Shown piece by piece: positions 3,069-55,376 of a stretch of DNA of 64,000 nt. Both the position numbers and the translations under genes were made by a program. Below the pieces are notes generated by a model that did not search any database, was not told the origin of the DNA, and saw only the letters and a program-made list of their open reading frames with translations. The DNA is taken from sequence record KP869102. One strand, written 5' to 3'. Every line of letters begins with the position of its first letter. Within the stretch, counting starts at the first letter, position 1. Source of the DNA: Escherichia coli O157 typing phage 4.

Positions 3069-4091
3069 TTATTCACTTTTCAGAGTTACTTTAACAACCA
3101 GCTCTGGGCGGGTGTTAACTGCCAGCATGGAAGTTTCAGATTCGATTTTCTGTTCTCTCAGGTAGGCAGAGTGTTTATACCACATATACAGCTCTTGAGC
3201 TGGGGTATTTGCATCTTCCAGAGTGTCAGCCGGAGCAAAGTGCAGCTGGAACATCTGATCGATACCCATAGGCATCAGACGAGCCTCACCGTCCGGAATG
3301 TTGCCAGAGATGTCTTCGATGAAGGTCATACCCTTGTGTTCAAACACACGGTAAATGCTCTGTTCACCACCTGCACCCAGACGACGACGCAGCGGTTCCT
3401 GAGAAGAGCTGTAGTAGGTGTAAGCCAGCTCTACCAGCGGGTGATGAACCAGTGCTGAGAAGAATTTCGGAGAGCACAGCGCGATGATGTTATAAGCACC
3501 AGCGTTGTCACCAGCCTGCAGAGCAATGTGCAGACGTGCATCTTCGATTACTTCCATCGGGTCCTGTGCTGCATTTTTAGGATCGATTTCGATAGATTTC
3601 TGGGAAACGCCCCACAGTTTGTAATAGTCATACTGACAGGTGGTGTCGCCAGGGGCATATGATTTACCCAGAACTGCAGCAAACAGCGCTTTTTCACGCA
3701 GAGTTTCGTGGGTCAGACGGATACGACGAACCACACGGGTAACTACGTCCTGAACAGTTTTCGGTGCATCAGGGGTGAAGTAGCGACGGAAGTTCTGAAC
3801 ATCCGCAGCGGTGATGCCTTTATCCAGCGGGAAGAACGGGATGTTCAGGTTTTTGATCTGAGCACGTTCGCTACCAACGTAGTTACGTTCACCACCACGG
3901 CGACGTGCAGCAATATCACCAACCACTTCATCTACACGTTCAATCTGTGCGATTGTTGAGGTGCCTAGATGAGTTTCAAACAGATCCATACCAGTGATCA
4001 GTCGGAATTGGCGCGGAACCAGTTCAAGAGTAGCACCTAAATCAACAATACCAAAATCATCTTTACGGGTGTTAGCCATTATTTTCTCCAA
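3069..4091 (-). CDS. major capsid protein
   Basis: 340-aa ORF at the lambda gpE position (portal-scaffold-decoration-capsid order); GC-richer codon usage than surroundings. Confidence 0.75.
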   Translation of the reverse strand: MEKIMANTRKDDFGIVDLGATLELVPRQFRLITGMDLFETHLGTSTIAQIERVDEVVGDIAARRRGGERNYVGSERAQIKNLNIPFFPLDKGITAADVQNFRRYFTPDAPKTVQDVVTRVVRRIRLTHETLREKALFAAVLGKSYAPGDTTCQYDYYKLWGVSQKSIEIDPKNAAQDPMEVIEDARLHIALQAGDNAGAYNIIALCSPKFFSALVHHPLVELAYTYYSSSQEPLRRRLGAGGEQSIYRVFEHKGMTFIEDISGNIPDGEARLMPMGIDQMFQLHFAPADTLEDANTPAQELYMWYKHSAYLREQKIESETSMLAVNTRPELVVKVTLKSE

Positions 4092-11181: not shown

Positions 11182-11258
11182 TGGTCTCCACGGAGTGATT
11201 CGAACACTCGACCTCCTGATCCCAAATCAGGCGCTCTACCAAGCTGAGCTACGCGGAG
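11182..11258 (-). tRNA. tRNA-Pro (anticodon TGG)
   Basis: Cloverleaf folded by hand: C1-G72 acceptor, T-arm GAGTG-TTCGAAT-CACTC, anticodon loop TTTGGGA, CCA encoded. Confidence 0.75.
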
Positions 11259-11269
11259 TATTCATTATT

Positions 11270-11344
11270 TGGTGGCCCTGGGTGGAATTGAACCACCGTC
11301 TGGCGATTATGAGTCGCTTGCTTGAACCTTCCAGCTACAGGGCC
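11270..11344 (-). tRNA. tRNA-Met/Ile2 (anticodon CAT)
   Basis: Acceptor GGCCCTG/CAGGGCC, T-arm GGTGG-TTCAATT-CCACC, anticodon loop CTCATAA, CCA encoded. Confidence 0.7.
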
Positions 11345-11345
11345 A

Positions 11346-11421
11346 TGGTGCTGATGGCAGGACTTGAACCTGCAACCTATTGATTACAAATCAATTGCAC
11401 TACCAATTGTGCTACATCAGC
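11346..11421 (-). tRNA. tRNA-Thr (anticodon TGT)
   Basis: Perfect acceptor GCTGATG/CATCAGC, T-loop TTCAAGT, anticodon loop TTTGTAA, CCA encoded. Confidence 0.75.
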
Positions 11422-11426
11422 AAAAA

Positions 11427-11517
11427 GGTGCTAGGTGATGGAGTCGAACCACCCGAATCGCAATGATAACAGATTTACAGTCTGCCCCGCTACCCCTACG
11501 GAATTAACTCACCTAAA
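11427..11517 (-). tRNA. tRNA-Tyr-like (anticodon GTA), long variable arm; possibly aberrant
   Basis: Anticodon arm GCAGA-CTGTAAA-TCTGT, T-arm GGTGG-TTCGACT-CCATC, variable hairpin; acceptor stem pairs imperfectly. Confidence 0.45.
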
Positions 11518-11643
11518 TACTAATATTTAAATTCTTTTTAAAATAGCTAGTGTTCTCACCACTAACTATGAGGTATCGGTAAAGTGGTTACCGCCACTTG
11601 CCGAAGATTTACTCTGCTAAAGTAAGCTACATTAAAAAGAACT

Positions 11644-11718
11644 TGGCACCCCGTACTGGACTCGAACCAGTGTCAACGGCTTAGAAGGCCGCTGCTTTAT
11701 CCACTAAGCTAACAGGGC
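11644..11718 (-). tRNA. tRNA-Arg (anticodon TCT)
   Basis: Acceptor with two G-U pairs, T-arm ACTGG-TTCGAGT-CCAGT, anticodon loop CTTCTAA, CCA encoded. Confidence 0.7.
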
Positions 11719-12820: not shown

Positions 12821-13030
12821 TCAACAGATTCCGGCCTTATCTCGCCTGTCTGCGTATTCTTTAATCGCAACCTCATCTGCATTAGTGACCAGGTCTTCAA
12901 AGTAACTCTCAAGCTCCTCGTCAATGTCAGGAGACCAGCTCTTTTTCCTGTCAGTGTGAATTGCAGACTTGTTGAACTTATTACAGTTCTTTGCTACCGG
13001 GTTATTCATTAAGCGCTCCTCAGCGTTCAT
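12821..13030 (-). CDS. hypothetical protein
   Basis: 69-aa acidic ORF, short overlap with upstream gene. Confidence 0.3.
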   Translation of the reverse strand: MNAEERLMNNPVAKNCNKFNKSAIHTDRKKSWSPDIDEELESYFEDLVTNADEVAIKEYADRRDKAGIC

Positions 13031-13598
13031 AGTAAATTTTATTTAACATTACCTCATCCTTTGCAGAAAGAATACCGAGATATGCATCACCGAATCTACC
13101 TGCAACAACCTCTGCATGATACATTACTTCGTTAATATCGTCAAGAGTGATAACTGGATGACCGTATCTCTCTGAGTATTGTCTCAGAGTGCGATGTAGA
13201 GAGTCATCATCATAGGCAGACTTTTTAATATCACAAACACGACGAATAGCCTTGATGTCGAAAAACCCTGTACGATACCAACCAAGAAAAAGGTTTCGTG
13301 CAGTGTCAACATCTACATCAATACCATCAAGAACCTTATCTACAAGATAGCTATCATCCTTTGGACTCGCTTCCTTAGTGCGGATATAGTTGCCATCTTT
13401 TCCAGGTGACAGCTCCTTCTCATCACCAGCCTTCATGTCATCATTTGGCGGGGTTAGCCACTTATCCGGATGCTTACGATCACGAGCGTTAGAATGATTA
13501 CGCTGGAAACCTGGCTGCCACTTGAAAGTTTTCTCCATCTGTTCTTCATTCTGATAACGTTTTGCAATCTTTTCACGGTCATCTTTGCGTGAACTCAT
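13020..13598 (-). CDS. hypothetical protein
   Basis: 192-aa ORF. Confidence 0.5.
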   Translation of the reverse strand: MSSRKDDREKIAKRYQNEEQMEKTFKWQPGFQRNHSNARDRKHPDKWLTPPNDDMKAGDEKELSPGKDGNYIRTKEASPKDDSYLVDKVLDGIDVDVDTARNLFLGWYRTGFFDIKAIRRVCDIKKSAYDDDSLHRTLRQYSERYGHPVITLDDINEVMYHAEVVAGRFGDAYLGILSAKDEVMLNKIYYER

Positions 13599-14102
13599 AG
13601 CTGCCTCCTCTTCAAGTTATAGAAAAACTCACTGTATCGCTTTGTAACGAGCTTTTCTATCAAACTGGTGCGATTGCATTACTTGGTATGGTTTATATAG
13701 CTGTGGAGCGATTTAGGGTCCTTCTTGTCCGTTTCCACACATAAACTTTATCCAAACTCGCGCGGGAGGCTCTCAACCGACTCCTTACGGCGCTGGCAAG
13801 CTTTCGTCGGTGGCCCACATTAGTGCTCGGCCTTTGGCCTGCGCTATCGCTTCGCTCCCACACATGTTAACAGACCTGCATGTATGCACTTCTGTTATTG
13901 TGTGCACTATGGAGGCCCGGCATCTCGCCCCTCGTAGGCGAGTGCCAATGAAGGGCCGACACTACCCATAGTAAGTAATAAATTTAAAACATGGTACTTA
14001 GGATCTAATATATTCTACATAAGTTAAGTATATGTACTTTAGTACCATAAGTACTAGATCTTTTATTTTTTATTATTCAGTTATTTTAGTTATATTCTTT
14101 AT

Positions 14103-14170
14103 GTGTCCGTATCACGGACAGTTAGTGTCCGTATTACGGGCAGTAGTGTCCGTATCACGGACAGTTAGTG
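14103..14170. repeat. three tandem palindromes TGTCCGT-N3-ACGGACA (candidate operator or origin sites)
   Basis: 18-bp inverted repeat present three times at ~21-23 bp spacing; middle copy degenerate. Confidence 0.6.
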
Positions 14171-14238
14171 GACTCTGTTCCAGAGCGAACATAAAACATA
14201 CGAATCCTTATAGTACAGATATTTAAGTTTTTACTGGT

Positions 14239-14589
14239 CTAACCAGTTGTTGACATCCGAATAACCTCTTCTGGTGGCAAAACTTTGGAAAATGTGCATC
14301 TTTTACCTCTCCCTTGTGTGGATGTTTCAACCACCCCCGCACACTCTAAAGTTTTAACGCACGCTGCTGCTTTTGTTTTCTTTATCCCAACATCTGCTGC
14401 AATTTTCCTTGTGCTTGGTGTGAAGCGTGAATTTCCTCCAAGCTTATACCAGTTGTGCAGGTAGCAGTATACAATCTTGTCATACAAGTCAAGAACAACA
14501 ACCTCTCCAGTTGTGTCATTCAAAACTTTTGACATAGACAGTATTTCAAGGGGGACTTTAAGATATAGCAGCTTATCCCCATCTTTCAT
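14239..14589 (-). CDS. putative HTH DNA-binding protein
   Basis: 116 aa with helix-turn-helix-like segment TRKIAADVGIKKTKAAACVKTLECAGVV. Confidence 0.45.
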   Translation of the reverse strand: MKDGDKLLYLKVPLEILSMSKVLNDTTGEVVVLDLYDKIVYCYLHNWYKLGGNSRFTPSTRKIAADVGIKKTKAAACVKTLECAGVVETSTQGRGKRCTFSKVLPPEEVIRMSTTG

Positions 14590-14636
14590 ATCTCCTGATT
14601 CTCCTTGTGTGGCAATTTTCTTTAAAATAGCAGGGA

Positions 14637-15191
14637 TTACTCCCCGCTGTCAATAGCAAAACTCATTGCAATACGGTATGCTTCTTCTAATGGTAAGAGT
14701 CTCCCCCACACATCCCAACCGACATCAAGCTGCCTGCCAAACAACTGTTGTGTGGTTCCGTGAGCATGACCGAACAGTTGGACTGATCCATGAGGCTTTC
14801 TGTTCCACTTTGCAAACTGGTAATGGCTCATACAGATCAAATTCTTGTTGTGGCGAAGCTCGTAATAATCTACAACCTCGTGATAGAACTCTTTCATAAT
14901 TCTGACAGTCGTCCTTGTGTCATGGTTGCCACGAACAAGAATAATATGTCCGTTCAACATATTTAGAATATCCGGGAGTAAGTTGTTGATATTCTTATCA
15001 TTAGTGCACGCAATATCTCCCAAGTGGAACACAGTGTCTGCAGGTGACACAACAGAGTTCCACTCGGCGATGATTCCTGCATTCATACTGTCAAGATTGT
15101 GATCATACTGAGATCTGTGTTTTTGACATGAATCAAACTCCATGACCCGCTGGTGGAGAAAGTGTGTGTCGCTTGTTACAAAGTATTTCAT
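14637..15191 (-). CDS. calcineurin-like metallophosphoesterase
   Basis: Motifs DTHF, GDIAC, GNHD; start trimmed to ATG at 15191 with GAGGA RBS. Confidence 0.7.
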   Translation of the reverse strand: MKYFVTSDTHFLHQRVMEFDSCQKHRSQYDHNLDSMNAGIIAEWNSVVSPADTVFHLGDIACTNDKNINNLLPDILNMLNGHIILVRGNHDTRTTVRIMKEFYHEVVDYYELRHNKNLICMSHYQFAKWNRKPHGSVQLFGHAHGTTQQLFGRQLDVGWDVWGRLLPLEEAYRIAMSFAIDSGE

Positions 15192-15198
15192 ACATTCC

Positions 15199-15609
15199 TC
15201 ATTTAAGTTTAATGCAGTTTTTAAGCTGGCGTTCCATACGATCCACAACCCTGTCTGGAACATCATGAATGCTTTTATTACCGTGGCGGTTTTCAACCAC
15301 GATCACGGTATAACTATACCCATGACTGATTGCCATGTCAACATATTCCTGCACATGTTTTTCTTTTGTAAACGTATTACTTACCACGATACGGTCGTAT
15401 CCCATACGCATCATATCTTCTACGTTATCTTTGCACCATTTTGCTGCGAGTGTTACTTTACTTGCATCCCAGTTGTAATTGCCGTCATCGTCATACCAGA
15501 ACATGTCGTTCTCAAAATGTGGATACAGACCTTCTAAAGATAGCGCATTTGCCAGTGTTGATTTGCCAGACCCTGGCAGACCACGCACGATATATAGCAT
15601 TTTAGACAT
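15199..15609 (-). CDS. P-loop kinase (polynucleotide kinase-like)
   Basis: Walker A GLPGSGKST near N-terminus; start at ATG 15609 with GGAGGA RBS. Confidence 0.6.
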   Translation of the reverse strand: MSKMLYIVRGLPGSGKSTLANALSLEGLYPHFENDMFWYDDDGNYNWDASKVTLAAKWCKDNVEDMMRMGYDRIVVSNTFTKEKHVQEYVDMAISHGYSYTVIVVENRHGNKSIHDVPDRVVDRMERQLKNCIKLK

Positions 15610-15709
15610 AGCAATCCTCCGTTTTAATTTTAATGATAGTATACCTAACTGTTTTGTTAATTTCAAGTGTTGACACTAGGTTATTTGTGTGGCAGGATAG
15701 ACTGACAAA

Positions 15710-49953: not shown

Positions 49954-50217
49954 ATGAACATCCTGATGTGGGTTATAGCAGTGGCGTTTGTTGCATGTTT
50001 TTGCTGCTGGGTTGCGGTGAGGATTTCTGTAGCTACCCTTCGGAAGTTGGGGTTCTCAGAATGGGATATTAATATCCTTTCTTTTCGCAATGAGACAATA
50101 TCAGCCGCCCTGCTTTGTAAGAAATTCAAGTGGGAACCTTGTGAGGTCATGAACTATCTAAGAACGGGAGATATCCCTGAAAGATTTAAAAAAGTTCTTG
50201 ACGGTAAGGATAAATGA
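49954..50217 (+). CDS. small membrane protein
   Basis: N-terminal TM helix; 87 aa. Confidence 0.4.
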   Translation: MNILMWVIAVAFVACFCCWVAVRISVATLRKLGFSEWDINILSFRNETISAALLCKKFKWEPCEVMNYLRTGDIPERFKKVLDGKDK

Positions 50218-52558: not shown

Positions 52559-52793
52559 CACACAATTAGCTGCCCGGCTAAAGTGCTGGAAGCACCTATA
52601 ACACATCTTTCAACTAAATTTCCCACCACAACAATCACTTACCTCCCATACATGACTGTTTGCTTGTTTAGTGAGCAGTCATGCCTTGACATTCTTGCCT
52701 ATCCTGATAAAATTAAGTTCTTCTCTTTTCTTTTACCGAGTAATTCGGGTTTTCTGTTCTCTTCGGTTTGAAGGGGTATGGAGATACACCTGA

Positions 52794-52893
52794 NNNNNNN
52801 NNNNNNNNNNNNNNNNNNNNNNNNNNNNNNNNNNNNNNNNNNNNNNNNNNNNNNNNNNNNNNNNNNNNNNNNNNNNNNNNNNNNNNNNNNNNN
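52794..52893. other. assembly gap (run of N)
   Basis: 100 consecutive N. Confidence 0.99.
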
Positions 52894-52944
52894 TTAGTGG
52901 CGGGAAGTTTTCCCGCCTGTGTTTTTAATTATACTTATTGAGAT

Positions 52945-53205
52945 TTACTTGTCAACACTATTTTTTAAATTATTGTGGCGCAAAATGTTTAAAATCTCTT
53001 CAACGTCATCAACACGGCGGCAATTTTTAAACGCTACCAATTGCCCCATGATTTTAATCACTGGGCGGCCTTGCCAGTGCCCCTGGAGAAAGCGCGCCTT
53101 GACTTTATCAGTGGAACTATCACGCCACCAAACGGCCTTGTTATTGCAGTAGTAAAAATTATTCAGGACAATATCAACTTTATCAAAATTTTTTAATTTA
53201 CGCAT
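52945..53205 (-). CDS. hypothetical protein
   Basis: 86-aa minus-strand ORF. Confidence 0.4.
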   Translation of the reverse strand: MRKLKNFDKVDIVLNNFYYCNNKAVWWRDSSTDKVKARFLQGHWQGRPVIKIMGQLVAFKNCRRVDDVEEILNILRHNNLKNSVDK

Positions 53206-53413
53206 AGTGTTTACTCCTTCCTTCTTGCTTTGATGTGGTTAGTATATCCGGACTATTCCAAGGTGTCAAGCTTTAAATAAAATCACTGTCAATGATATTT
53301 TTAACACCATAAAACGGCCCTGGGTGATGTTTTCAGGCTAAGAAAGGGGATTGCATAGGTAGGGGCTTTTGTGGCGTTTGTGGGGCCAACCAGGGGCGCT
53401 ATTCGTAGGATAG

Positions 53414-53442
53414 AAATAAAAAGCCCCGCACAATGGCGGGGC
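53414..53442 (-). terminator. rho-independent terminator
   Basis: On minus strand GCCCCGC-CATTGT-GCGGGGC followed by TTTTTATTT. Confidence 0.55.
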
Positions 53443-53531
53443 GTTGGTTGTTATTTGTCTTTATGGCGGTATCGTTCCGCTTGTCGTTCACGTTCCAAAA
53501 GTAGGCCCGGCAATTTACGATCATAATGATT

Positions 53532-53633
53532 CCNNNNNNNNNNNNNNNNNNNNNNNNNNNNNNNNNNNNNNNNNNNNNNNNNNNNNNNNNNNNNNNNNNN
53601 NNNNNNNNNNNNNNNNNNNNNNNNNNNNNNNNN
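53532..53633. other. assembly gap (run of N)
   Basis: About 100 consecutive N. Confidence 0.99.
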
Positions 53634-53949
53634 TGGCCTGAATCGCCCGGATACGGCGTTTTATAACCTCCTGATCCGTGCAATCGTATCCCCAAAAGTC
53701 TACAATTTTCGCGCCGCCAGCTTTTAAGCGGTATAATGTTTCTTGCATTTTGTAAGCTGGGATCGGTCGCGGTGTTACCTGGTCGCCTTTTTCATCCTTG
53801 TACTTGATTATGTAGTCCTCGTTGTCGTTGAATACCCAAAAAGGGTACTCTGTAAGGGCGTTGCTTTCTTTTTCGTTTTTAGATTGGATCTTGTTTACAA
53901 TTAAAGCCGTAGCAATAGCGCCAATAATAAAACTAGCCCCGCTGATCAT
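53634..53949 (-). CDS. hypothetical protein with N-terminal TM helix, partial (runs into gap)
   Basis: Minus ORF from ATG ~53949; 3-prime end lost in N run. Confidence 0.35.
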
Positions 53950-54024
53950 GTTACTTTCTCCTTTCATTGTGTTGATAAACTATCTTTATAGATGGCCCTG
54001 TTACCAGGACCACCGAAAAAATAA

Positions 54025-54270
54025 CTATTTCACAATGCCTACAAAACAGATCCCGCCTTCACCTATATAGGCAATATCGGTAATTTTATAATTTGTCAAG
54101 ATCCGCGTGTTCAGATCATTAATAAAATCGGTCATCGCGTTGGTGTAGTTGTCTTCCGTGTCTAAGGCATAATCCCAGGTGTAAACCTTTTTACGTCCGA
54201 AGCCTTTTACCATGATACGGGCGCTTTTGGTGTTGGTAGGGGCATAATATTTGGTGATTAGTGCTGCCAT
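54025..54270 (-). CDS. hypothetical protein
   Basis: 81 aa, AGGAG RBS. Confidence 0.4.
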   Translation of the reverse strand: MAALITKYYAPTNTKSARIMVKGFGRKKVYTWDYALDTEDNYTNAMTDFINDLNTRILTNYKITDIAYIGEGGICFVGIVK

Positions 54271-54359
54271 GGTTTTAACTCCTCTGAATTAGTTCAGTGT
54301 TAACAGTATAAAGTTTACTTTATTGATGGCCCTGAAGTCAAGGCCATCTAAAAATAAAC

Positions 54360-54701
54360 TTACTCGTTTTCTTCCAGCTCCGCAAGCTCTTCTTTTGCTT
54401 CTTCTAACTCTGTCTGTAGTTCCTGGTATTCTTCATCGTCCTCAATATCCAGGCTGTCGATGTAGTCGCTAAATCCGCAGCGGTAAGCGATAGGATCTAG
54501 CTCCTTGAGGATACGCGACGGAAGAAAAGAAATGTTTCCGATCATAATTTCGCCGTAGATCTCGTCTAACCATTCATCATAGTTTTCGTCGTACTTGTCC
54601 TCGTCGATTTCAAAGTTATCGATCTTGTTCTCAAGGTCTGCGATCTGTTTTTTCAGCGCGGCGATCTGCATAGCTTTTTCTGCGGCGGTCATAGTAGTCA
54701 T
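54360..54701 (-). CDS. hypothetical acidic coiled-coil protein
   Basis: 113 aa, AAGGAG RBS. Confidence 0.45.
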   Translation of the reverse strand: MTTMTAAEKAMQIAALKKQIADLENKIDNFEIDEDKYDENYDEWLDEIYGEIMIGNISFLPSRILKELDPIAYRCGFSDYIDSLDIEDDEEYQELQTELEEAKEELAELEENE

Positions 54702-54980
54702 GGTGTTTTCTCCTTTTGTGTGCTCTGGGAAGTTTTCCCGTTTACGTGTTTAAGTATAGCGATCTAAGTTAGTTTGTCAATTAAAAATTTAAGAAAAATT
54801 TTGCAAAACTGTTAGCGCTACTCATTAACATTTGCGCCAGGATGTAACCAATGATGCAAACGATAATAGTTACCTTTGTGTGCTGGCGTGTAGTACTCAT
54901 CTTTAAGCCCCCCTTTCCGCTCAACTGTGGTTAGTTTACTTTATTGATGGCCCTGGAGTCAAGGCCATCTAAAAATAAAC

Positions 54981-55376
54981 TCAGTACGTTTTCAGTACTT
55001 TCCCGTCCAACCTGTCTAACTGAATCTCAATAGCTGCAGAAAACCTATTGTAAACCACATCGCCCAAGGAGTCCAGCCAATCTATAACGTTATACACCTG
55101 CTCTTTATTCTTGCAAGTCCGGATCCGTTTCATTACGTAAGACGGATCAATATTAGTACTCCCGTTGTTGTGGTCATGCGCCTGGCCTGCTGCACTGGTT
55201 ATAGATTTTACAACCACCTGAAAGGGCTTTAAGGTGCCTTTTGCGTTCATCTCACGCGCTTTTGCGGCGCGGTTGTTATATGTTACACAACGGCGGCAAA
55301 TGTTGAATAAATGCATGTCAATAATTTTTTCATCGTTTGCCAGTTCGTTCATGATGCGGCGTACGTTCTTATTCAT
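54981..55376 (-). CDS. hypothetical protein
   Basis: 131 aa, AGAGGA RBS. Confidence 0.45.
   Translation of the reverse strand: MNKNVRRIMNELANDEKIIDMHLFNICRRCVTYNNRAAKAREMNAKGTLKPFQVVVKSITSAAGQAHDHNNGSTNIDPSYVMKRIRTCKNKEQVYNVIDWLDSLGDVVYNRFSAAIEIQLDRLDGKVLKTY

Follow-up and report, generated by a model that had tools for sequence, protein, structure and literature searches.

In iteron plasmids such as pPS10, RK2, and P1, tandem iterons of 17 to 22 bp lie in helical phase beside an AT-rich element that is unwound, with the rep gene linked in cis; a GC-rich segment commonly lies beside the AT-rich region, and DnaA boxes are usual. These iterons are usually asymmetric and are bound by Rep monomers (WH1-WH2). 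The origin of phage lambda is built from four close repeats of about 18 to 19 bp with internal dyad symmetry, each occupied by a dimer of the N-terminal winged-helix domain of the O protein, and the AT-rich region that is unwound directly adjoins the repeats.

In the RepA_N plasmids of Firmicutes (pSK41 and pTZ2162), a dimeric winged-helix N-terminal domain binds semipalindromic iterons (PMC7145576). A protein of the same type is found in the PLE satellite of Vibrio cholerae: the structure 4RO3 is the dimeric, RepA_N-type N-terminal domain of PLE RepA (Barth et al. 2020, PMC7145576), and EMSA and deletion experiments showed that PLE RepA binds semipalindromic iterons that are required for PLE replication (PMC7145576). 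The PLE origin consists of three semipalindromic repeats of ~30 bp each (Barth et al. 2021, PMC8263062). The RepA_N domain of PLE covaries with its origin, and in phage ICP1 a copy of the domain has been put to use in the nuclease Odn (PMC8263062).

In this study, we describe a palindrome array in rV5-like coliphages, together with an adjoining AT-rich stretch and a neighboring gene, ORF73, and we ask how closely the locus compares with these systems. Some GenBank records mark the array as a "repeat_region," uninterpreted. In the open-access literature, we found no paper that joins the array, ORF73, and PLE RepA or that defines an origin for these phages, and searches of that literature for Vequintavirus iterons, origin, and transcriptomics yielded nothing relevant besides the rV5 genome paper.

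Results

The locus and its genes

The window is the whole 64,000-nucleotide stretch of DNA that was analyzed, and all positions given here refer to it. Between positions 13000 and 16000, it is 100% identical over 3 kb to Escherichia phage JES2013 (KC690136/NC_022323), a 136.9-kb Vequintavirus, that is, an rV5-like myovirus; window position 1 is record position 50145. Every gene leftwards from 15666 is carried by the minus strand, and there is a divergent transcription switch at 15666/15710. The array is housed in a 640-bp intergenic region between ORF73 and ORF72, and the features of the locus are as follows.

13020-13598, minus strand: ORF72, on the far side of the intergenic region
13692-13965: GC-rich block of 274 bp (53 to 62% GC), conserved, with long invariant blocks
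13966-14103: AT-rich stretch of 138 bp that abuts the array; putative DNA-unwinding element
14104-14163: array of three dyad-symmetric units; putative iterons
14164-14200: hypervariable spacer of 37 bp between the array and the ORF73 3' untranslated stretch, used as the local neutral-rate comparator
14201-14238: ORF73 3' untranslated stretch of 38 nt
14239-14589, minus strand: ORF73 (116 aa, stop at 14239), putative array-binding winged-helix protein
14624-14653, minus strand: sigma-70-like promoter just upstream of ORF73 (TTGACA-18-TATTTT plus an upstream TG; 10/12 consensus match)

The rV5 annotation has a promoter, P76, at the place equivalent to the ORF73 promoter. The ORF73 promoter would permit early expression by the host polymerase. 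At the other end of the intergenic region, a 14-nt inverted repeat (13678-13691 and 13966-13979) flanks the GC-rich block. A structured RNA in this block was considered and rejected: there was no Rfam match, the fold z scores were only -3.1 and -3.9, and no compensatory pairs were found among 10 sequences.

The palindrome array

An earlier note on this DNA had described three perfect 18-bp palindromes at 14103-14170. Tandem Repeats Finder returned exactly these coordinates (period 22, 3.1 copies, score 115) as the top-scoring array of the window; however, the unit, TGTCCGT-N3-ACGGACA, is 17 bp long (7+3+7), and the inverted repeats are perfect in two units only, the middle unit having one arm mismatch.

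14104-14120: unit 1, TGTCCGTATCACGGACA, perfect palindrome
14126-14142: unit 2, TGTCCGTATTACGGGCA, one arm mismatch
14147-14163: unit 3, TGTCCGTATCACGGACA, perfect palindrome

The unit starts are 22 and 21 bp apart, with linkers of 4 to 5 bp, in agreement with the spacing of roughly two helical turns that had been noticed, and the array doubles as a direct tandem repeat with a unit of 21 to 22 bp. Within each unit, the half-site reads TG(T/c)CCG(T/c), and 10 bp separate the half-site centers. The note was also right to place the array downstream of a gene for a helix-turn-helix protein (14239..14589): since ORF73 is encoded on the minus strand and the array begins 75 bp past its stop codon, the array is downstream in the transcription sense.

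When up to two mismatches were allowed, 0.11 ± 0.37 matches were expected in the 64-kb window and 4 were observed, 3 of them inside 60 bp; none of 100 shuffles gave 4 matches at this threshold. A motif search was run on the whole reconstructed 136.9-kb genome, where the three array units were the only matches at zero or one mismatch and thus mark one locus only. Searches of IMG/VR and metagenomes with the palindrome pattern were uninformative, giving only isolated chance copies and no arrays. Since the motif is nonrandom and confined to a single genomic locus, a dispersed intergenic repeat is excluded; the specific case of a dispersed REP-like repeat was likewise rejected, with one locus in 136.9 kb and no match in 5,426 Escherichia coli genomes. 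The possibility raised in the note as a counter-explanation, a common intergenic repeat with terminator function only, therefore does not hold, the motif being present once in the genome and followed by no U-tract.

The ORF73 protein

ORF73 is a single domain of 116 aa that terminates with the wing of its predicted fold, and it lacks a C-terminal recruitment domain. Its Pfam scores fell just under the cutoffs for HTH_36 (PF13730; 24.5 bits, cutoff 25) and DUF6945 (PF22182; 27.4 bits, cutoff 28), and there was no match to RepA_N (PF06970) at an E value of ≤1; the distant relatives P0011 and P0021 do clear the DUF6945 and/or HTH_36 thresholds. The PHROG search assigned it to PHROG 12838 ("replication initiation protein"); weaker matches were to the N-terminal winged helix-turn-helix regions of three further PHROGs of that name. 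RefSeq names it "replication initiation protein," whereas the GenBank submitters chose "putative transcriptional regulator."

Comparison with the PDB pointed to one structure. The single sequence matched 4RO3 by phmmer (E = 3e-6), and a family profile of 16 sequences matched it at E = 8.6e-11, with the second match at 6e-3; structures of the pSK41/pTZ2162 RepA_N type gave a weak sequence match (E about 0.8). AlphaFold run on the single sequence reached a pLDDT of only 39, and the 16-sequence alignment was required; the resulting AF2 model (pLDDT, 75.7; pTM, 0.71) predicts a beta-hairpin followed by a winged helix. In a Foldseek search with this predicted model, 4RO3 was the best match (E = 8.8e-6 over 101 columns), and only 4RO3 and 4PQL, the N-terminal domain of pSK41 RepA, were found at an E value of ≤1e-3. 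The next matches of the model were 4PT7 and 5KBJ (pTZ2162 RepA, free and on iteron DNA, respectively); 4PQL, 4PT7, and 5KBJ had E values of 7.5e-4 to 1.4e-2 over 84 to 108 columns. Based on these matches, ORF73 is a homologue of the iteron-binding N-terminal domain of PLE RepA, with a predicted winged-helix fold.

The family is very rare: among 1.84 billion representatives searched exhaustively with HMMER, ORF73 had only 8 matches. A profile search added a small clade of 182- to 217-aa proteins from uncultured phages, and searches of viral and genome contig collections with ORF73 or the family alignment gave no relatives. In the distant clade (L245, L246, L249, and L251), the ORF73 homologue is encoded third in an early operon, next to a divergent intergenic region of ~500 bp, in which an AT-rich stretch is followed by two copies of (C/T)AGGTACA 22 bp apart; one or two extra copies are present, and genes for a DNA polymerase and a primase-helicase are nearby. 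This layout echoes the design of AT-rich DNA and phased repeats described here, without proving anything. The idea that ORF72 is the missing C-terminal domain found no support; ORF72 showed no similarity in Pfam, PDB, or BLASTP searches, nor to the C-terminal parts of the relatives.

The AT-rich stretch and nearby signals

The AT-rich stretch contains 18 to 20% GC, compared with 43.6% for the genome, and is among the approximately six most AT-rich stretches of 100 to 130 bp genome-wide. Its internal conserved motifs include two GATC sites and four GTAC sites within 60 bp, and inverted arms of the ATGGTACT/GATCTAGTA type lie inside it. The stretch is conserved in sequence, beyond its composition, and may therefore contain further sites, for example, a phage-specific promoter. 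No sigma-70 match of at least 10/12 was found on either strand of the stretch, and the intergenic region as a whole showed no strong sigma-70 promoter; a late-type promoter had been predicted by software in the AT-rich DNA of one relative, and its motif is altered in JES2013 (ACTGAATA). Between 13599 and 14238, neither a DnaA box (TTWTNCACA) nor an IHF consensus was found, only a single 7-mer, TTATCCA. A terminator scan of 13400-14800 returned no hits, and no T-run follows any array hairpin.

The global cumulative GC-skew minimum falls at window position 15620, 1.46 kb from the array. This is weak evidence for an origin, because the minimum coincides with, and is explained by, the divergent transcription switch. 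In the rV5 genome paper, a skew-based origin search found no origin, and the skew changes were likewise linked to transcription (PMC3606486). A 2.6-kb gene-poor region at 52.5 to 55.2 kb was considered as another origin and rejected; it holds repeated terminator-like and promoter-like units and no iteron array.

The array across relatives

ORF73 and the array with its AT-rich DNA co-occur in the same 118 phage records, all of them Vequintavirus, and among 50,697 phage records neither was found outside those 118. The label "Campylobacter phage" is borne by 18 of the 118 records. The intergenic region had no match in 5,426 E. coli genomes. Other Vequintavirinae and related genera have neither the gene nor an array at the corresponding locus: in Klebsiella phage Seu621 and Escherichia phage Schickermooser, the gene order there is different, with no ORF73 homologue and no array. 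Therefore, the origin, if real, is genus specific.

The array region was read in 16 genomes, and 56 units, or 112 half-sites, were compared. Each genome has 2, 3, or 4 units; the majority, rV5 included, have four (R1 to R4, with spacings of 22, 21, and 21 bp). JES2013 is without R3, which in nomine has been removed via a different junction; V18 and bov10K2 have R2/R3 fusions that differ from each other; FFH2 is without R1 and BP9 without R4; and navn has just R3 and R4 left, that is, 2 units. At least two units are thus present in 16/16 genomes, whole units are always kept, and the 21- to 22-bp register is intact. The span lengths in a listing of 60 records are consistent with 2, 3, or 4 units. 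These copy-number differences are independent unequal crossovers, each preserving whole units.

The array and the AT-rich stretch had nucleotide diversities of 0.022 and 0.024, respectively; at third codon positions the values were 0.081 for ORF73 and 0.043 for ORF72, and the 37-bp spacer reached 0.16, with 46% of its columns variable. Relative to nearby third codon positions and the spacer, the array and the AT-rich stretch are thus 3 to 7 times less variable; the array is 7-fold less diverse than the spacer and 3.6-fold less diverse than ORF73 third positions, and by this comparison it is under purifying selection. Half-site positions 1, 2, 4, 5, and 6 are invariant in all 112 half-sites; variation is found only at positions 3 and 7 and in the 3-nt unit center, which is ATC, ATT, or GTG. 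The unit search pattern fixed positions 1, 2, and 4, and the alignment shows that no divergent unit was missed.

Discussion

The five invariant half-site positions, the 10-bp half-site spacing, and the two-turn unit spacing argue for sequence-specific recognition by a protein. It is likely, on the evidence of sequence, that the array is a binding site for ORF73 dimers. The array and the AT-rich stretch together may constitute an iteron-type replication origin of the rV5-like phages; this is the best-supported reading, and we assign it a probability of roughly 50%. The earlier note read the array as either an operator or an origin for a dimeric DNA-binding protein and tied it to the helix-turn-helix gene; this general idea fits the computational tests, and on the choice that the note left between the two functions, the evidence favors an origin over an operator without deciding between them.

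If the locus is an origin, we postulate that ORF73 would be made early from its sigma-70-like promoter and would dimerize as its homologues, the N-terminal domains of PLE RepA and staphylococcal RepA, do. The geometry of the sites suggests that one dimer would occupy each 17-bp unit, with its two recognition helices placed on the TG(T)CCG half-sites in successive major grooves. Since the units are two helical turns apart, bound dimers would lie on one face of the helix, and 2 to 4 of them could be stacked there. By analogy with the lambda origin and the iteron plasmids, the nucleoprotein complex would distort and open the 138-bp AT-rich stretch. A partner protein might then load the phage helicase and primase; we speculate on a partner because ORF73 is without the C-terminal recruitment domain of RepA-type initiators.

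The same absence counts against an origin: ORF73 is a DNA-binding domain alone, whereas RepA_N and PLE initiators need their C-terminal domain, as lambda O needs its P-binding domain. It also counts against an origin that the same domain serves a nonreplicative role in ICP1 Odn, that the Pfam scores lie below their cutoffs, and that the locus has no poly-A center and no DnaA or IHF sites. One conceivable, although improbable, reading is that rV5-like phages use a split or minimal initiator, in which ORF73 marks the origin through the 2 to 4 palindromic units and loading is provided in trans by another phage protein, such as the genus-specific ORF72 or the SF1B helicase; another form of the same idea is that the replicon domain was captured from a satellite-type element, much as ICP1 acquired one for Odn. 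In either form, this would be the first origin to be defined for Vequintavirus and, among large virulent coliphages, the first origin module of the RepA_N-like type.

The main rival reading, in our view unlikely, is that the array is an operator at which ORF73 acts as a transcription factor. Bound at the palindromes, it could turn up or shut down a promoter in the AT-rich DNA that serves the leftward genes (the GC-rich block, ORF72, the tRNAs, and the lysis and late genes), or it could act as a roadblock that keeps transcription begun in the early promoter region from running on into those genes. The conservation of the AT-rich DNA in sequence, its GTAC and GATC sites and ATGGTACT-type inverted motifs, and the late-type promoter predicted in one relative would all suit such a role; however, neither strand of the stretch offers a sigma-70 match that reaches 10/12, and JES2013 itself carries an altered form of the predicted late-type motif. 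The ORF73 promoter gives no indication of classic autoregulation, since it contains neither a palindrome nor a pair of half-sites. In addition, 2 to 4 in-register dyad sites beside DNA that ranks among the most AT-rich in the genome are the architecture of an origin, and the sole specific homologue of ORF73 is the domain of an initiator rather than of a repressor. A quite different reading, that the array forms RNA or DNA hairpins in the ORF73 transcript as a terminator, 3'-end stabilizer, or processing signal, seems very improbable. In its favor, the array is part of the 3' untranslated region of ORF73; a stem of 7 bp closed by a 3-nt loop is available to each unit (-8.2 kcal/mol as RNA), and folding is stronger than for shuffled sequences (z = -3.4 as RNA and -7.9 as single-stranded DNA). 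However, arms from different units compete with one another, which leaves the centroid structure without pairs, and neither a U-tract nor a scanned terminator is present. In the commonest asymmetric units, the mismatch is T.G when read from one strand and C.A when read from the opposite one, differing by unit, so that no transcript keeps all stems; arm mismatches on either strand thus point to recognition by a protein and not to an RNA hairpin. Hairpins would also have no need of a strict 21- to 22-bp register or of a 3-nt loop and linkers conserved as much as the stems.

The adjacency of ORF73 could be coincidental, with the array serving a different protein or process, for instance, as a terminase pac site, as a site for some host factor, or as target or decoy in a conflict with satellites; we regard this as improbable. 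Circular permutation of the genome implies a headful mode of packaging (PMC3606486), and the gene for the terminase large subunit is ~4 kb away, but spanin, tRNA, and several more genes lie between the array and the terminase genes. Phages and satellites exchange RepA_N-like domains (PMC8263062), and the distant relatives of ORF73 adjoin a different repeat, AGGTACA; since GGTAC-type motifs are also present in the AT-rich stretch of JES2013, these motifs could be the true ORF73 site. Against this family of explanations, the gene and the array occur together in 118/118 records, the dyad symmetry and 10-bp half-site spacing suit a winged-helix dimer, for example, of the RepA_N type, and the intergenic region is unmatched in the E. 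coli genomes. Least credible of all is a neutral tandem duplication without function. The instability of unit number between isolates is what such a duplication would show, but it is hard to reconcile with the retention of two or more units in every genome read (and, by span length, in the 60 listed records), with the invariance of 5/7 half-site positions, or with the low diversity of the array relative to the spacer and the third positions of ORF73.

Vequintavirus phages are isolated widely and find use against pathogens, among them E. coli O157. The reading of the locus as an origin offers a precise candidate, made up of 60 bp of putative iterons, 138 bp of AT-rich DNA, and a 116-aa putative binding protein, and with it an engineering handle for origin-dependent plasmids and replication-defective mutants. 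If this reading is true, iteron recognition of the PLE/RepA_N kind would reach beyond Gram-positive plasmids and a Vibrio satellite to a large virulent coliphage. The unusual feature of such a module would be, as far as the predicted protein indicates, an initiator reduced to its DNA-binding domain, which raises the question of how an initiator of this form recruits the replisome. If the module is an operator, it is an ordinary regulatory site.

By analogy, the layout of the locus, with dyad-symmetric phased repeats, an AT-rich neighbor, and a cis-encoded binding-domain gene, is that of the lambda origin with O and of the PLE replicon. The likeness to lambda lies in the architecture (four repeats in lambda and 2 to 4 here) and in the adjacent AT-rich DNA; unlike lambda O, ORF73 has no Phage_rep_O match in Pfam. 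The lambda origin is situated within the O gene, and the C-terminal domain of O binds P-DnaB, a domain for which ORF73 has no counterpart. The locus has in common with the iteron plasmids the helical phasing, the AT-rich neighbor with a GC-rich segment beside it, and a cis-linked gene, here for a putative iteron-binding protein, but its units are palindromic and a DnaA box is absent. The RepA_N plasmids supply, through 4PQL, 4PT7, and 5KBJ, the second-best structural matches to the predicted ORF73 model after 4RO3; ORF73 differs from their initiators in having neither a PF06970 match nor a C-terminal domain. Their iterons typically contain a poly-A tract, unlike the ATC/ATT/GTG center found here, and their origins sit within the rep gene, whereas this array is downstream of the gene. 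PLE RepA depends on the SF1B helicase of ICP1, and PLE is a helper-dependent satellite; the present array belongs to a virulent myovirus of 137 kb that has a polymerase, a primase-helicase, and an SF1B helicase of its own. Unlike ORF73, PLE RepA has a C-terminal domain that is thought to recruit the replisome, and the PLE iterons are ~30 bp long with subrepeats around an A-tract, whereas the units described here are 17 bp long with a spacing of 21 to 22 bp. What the two loci share is a small number (about three) of tandem semipalindromic repeats in noncoding DNA that adjoins the gene, which in PLE is NCR3.

Sequences flanking the palindrome array

Between the array and a GC-rich block lies an AT-rich stretch (13966-14103) that, at 13990-14060, is conserved at the sequence level, beyond composition. 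GTAC occurs four times in a 60-bp part of this stretch, with 109 occurrences across the whole 64-kb window; 13990-14060 also contains two GATC (Dam) sites and inverted arms of the ATGGTACT and GATCTAGTA type. These conserved motifs may be another group of protein-binding sites, or a promoter specific to the phage. The neighboring features are as follows:

13678-13691 and 13966-13979: 14-nt inverted repeat bracketing the GC-rich block
13692-13965: GC-rich block, 274 bp, 53-62% GC versus 43.6% for the genome

Long runs of the GC-rich block are without variation among 16 genomes, and rV5, a relative of JES2013, has an 18-bp deletion relative to it and an annotated 56-aa ORF78 within it. No Rfam match to 13692-13965 was obtained, the fold z-scores of the block were only -3 to -4, and zero compensatory pairs were found in it.

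Database labels and chance motif copies

Eighteen GenBank records (MG0656xx; e.g., MG065652, MG065677, and MG065644) are named "Campylobacter phage," with Campylobacter jejuni as the host; their sequences are about 97% identical to those of Escherichia coli rV5-like phages across 3 kb, and the records are probably either mislabelled or assembled from contaminants. L084 (IMGVR_UViG_3300042691_021677), a high-GC viral contig that is unrelated, contains a longer palindrome, CTTGTCCGTGCCACGGACAAGG, in three dispersed copies (2303-2319, 2650-2666, and 3405-3421), every one of which occupies a short gap immediately ahead of a gene. This palindrome looks like a distinct regulatory motif; the TGTCCGT/ACGGACA core is common to it and to the array by chance.

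Other noncoding and tRNA regions

About 52560-55150 (record 102.7-105.3 kb): gene-poor region, ~2.6 kb

This region coincides with the convergent transcription switch and the GC-skew maximum. The equivalent stretch of rV5 was reported to be without observable ORFs (PMC3606486) and is likely the "non-coding" box in Figure 2 of that paper. The region contains two 54-nt units and three copies of a 49-nt unit, each with a GATGGCCCTG...CAAGGCCATC hairpin between A/T runs, which is bidirectional terminator-like; neither an Rfam match nor an iteron-like array was found in it.

JES2013 carries four tRNA genes (Pro, Met, Thr, and Arg; 11182-11718) and, at 11437-11501, only a partial tRNA match that is weak and falls below the threshold. 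Relatives, inoa and rV5 among them, have extra Ser and Tyr tRNA genes between Thr and Arg, where inoa has one further "other" tRNA gene; the cluster has apparently been partly lost in JES2013.

Distant relatives and gene order

Distant relatives (182-217 aa) of ORF73, the putative array-binding protein, are encoded by uncultured phages in which the divergent early intergenic region comprises an AT-rich stretch, then two (C/T)AGGTACA repeats, 22 bp apart:

L245: 4480-4520
L246: 4480-4525
L249: 3275-3315
L251: 3485-3525

These loci have additional upstream copies and, ~50 bp downstream, a near-consensus sigma-70 promoter.

In Vequintavirus (window 14637-15666), the phosphoesterase and AAA-kinase genes and ORF73 are on the strand opposite the RNA ligase gene, whereas in Klebsiella phage Seu621 (Mydovirus) and Escherichia phage Schickermooser (L237 and L238) the phosphoesterase and AAA-kinase genes share its orientation. 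The ORF73/array module therefore occupies a segment whose inversion or rearrangement is specific to the genus.
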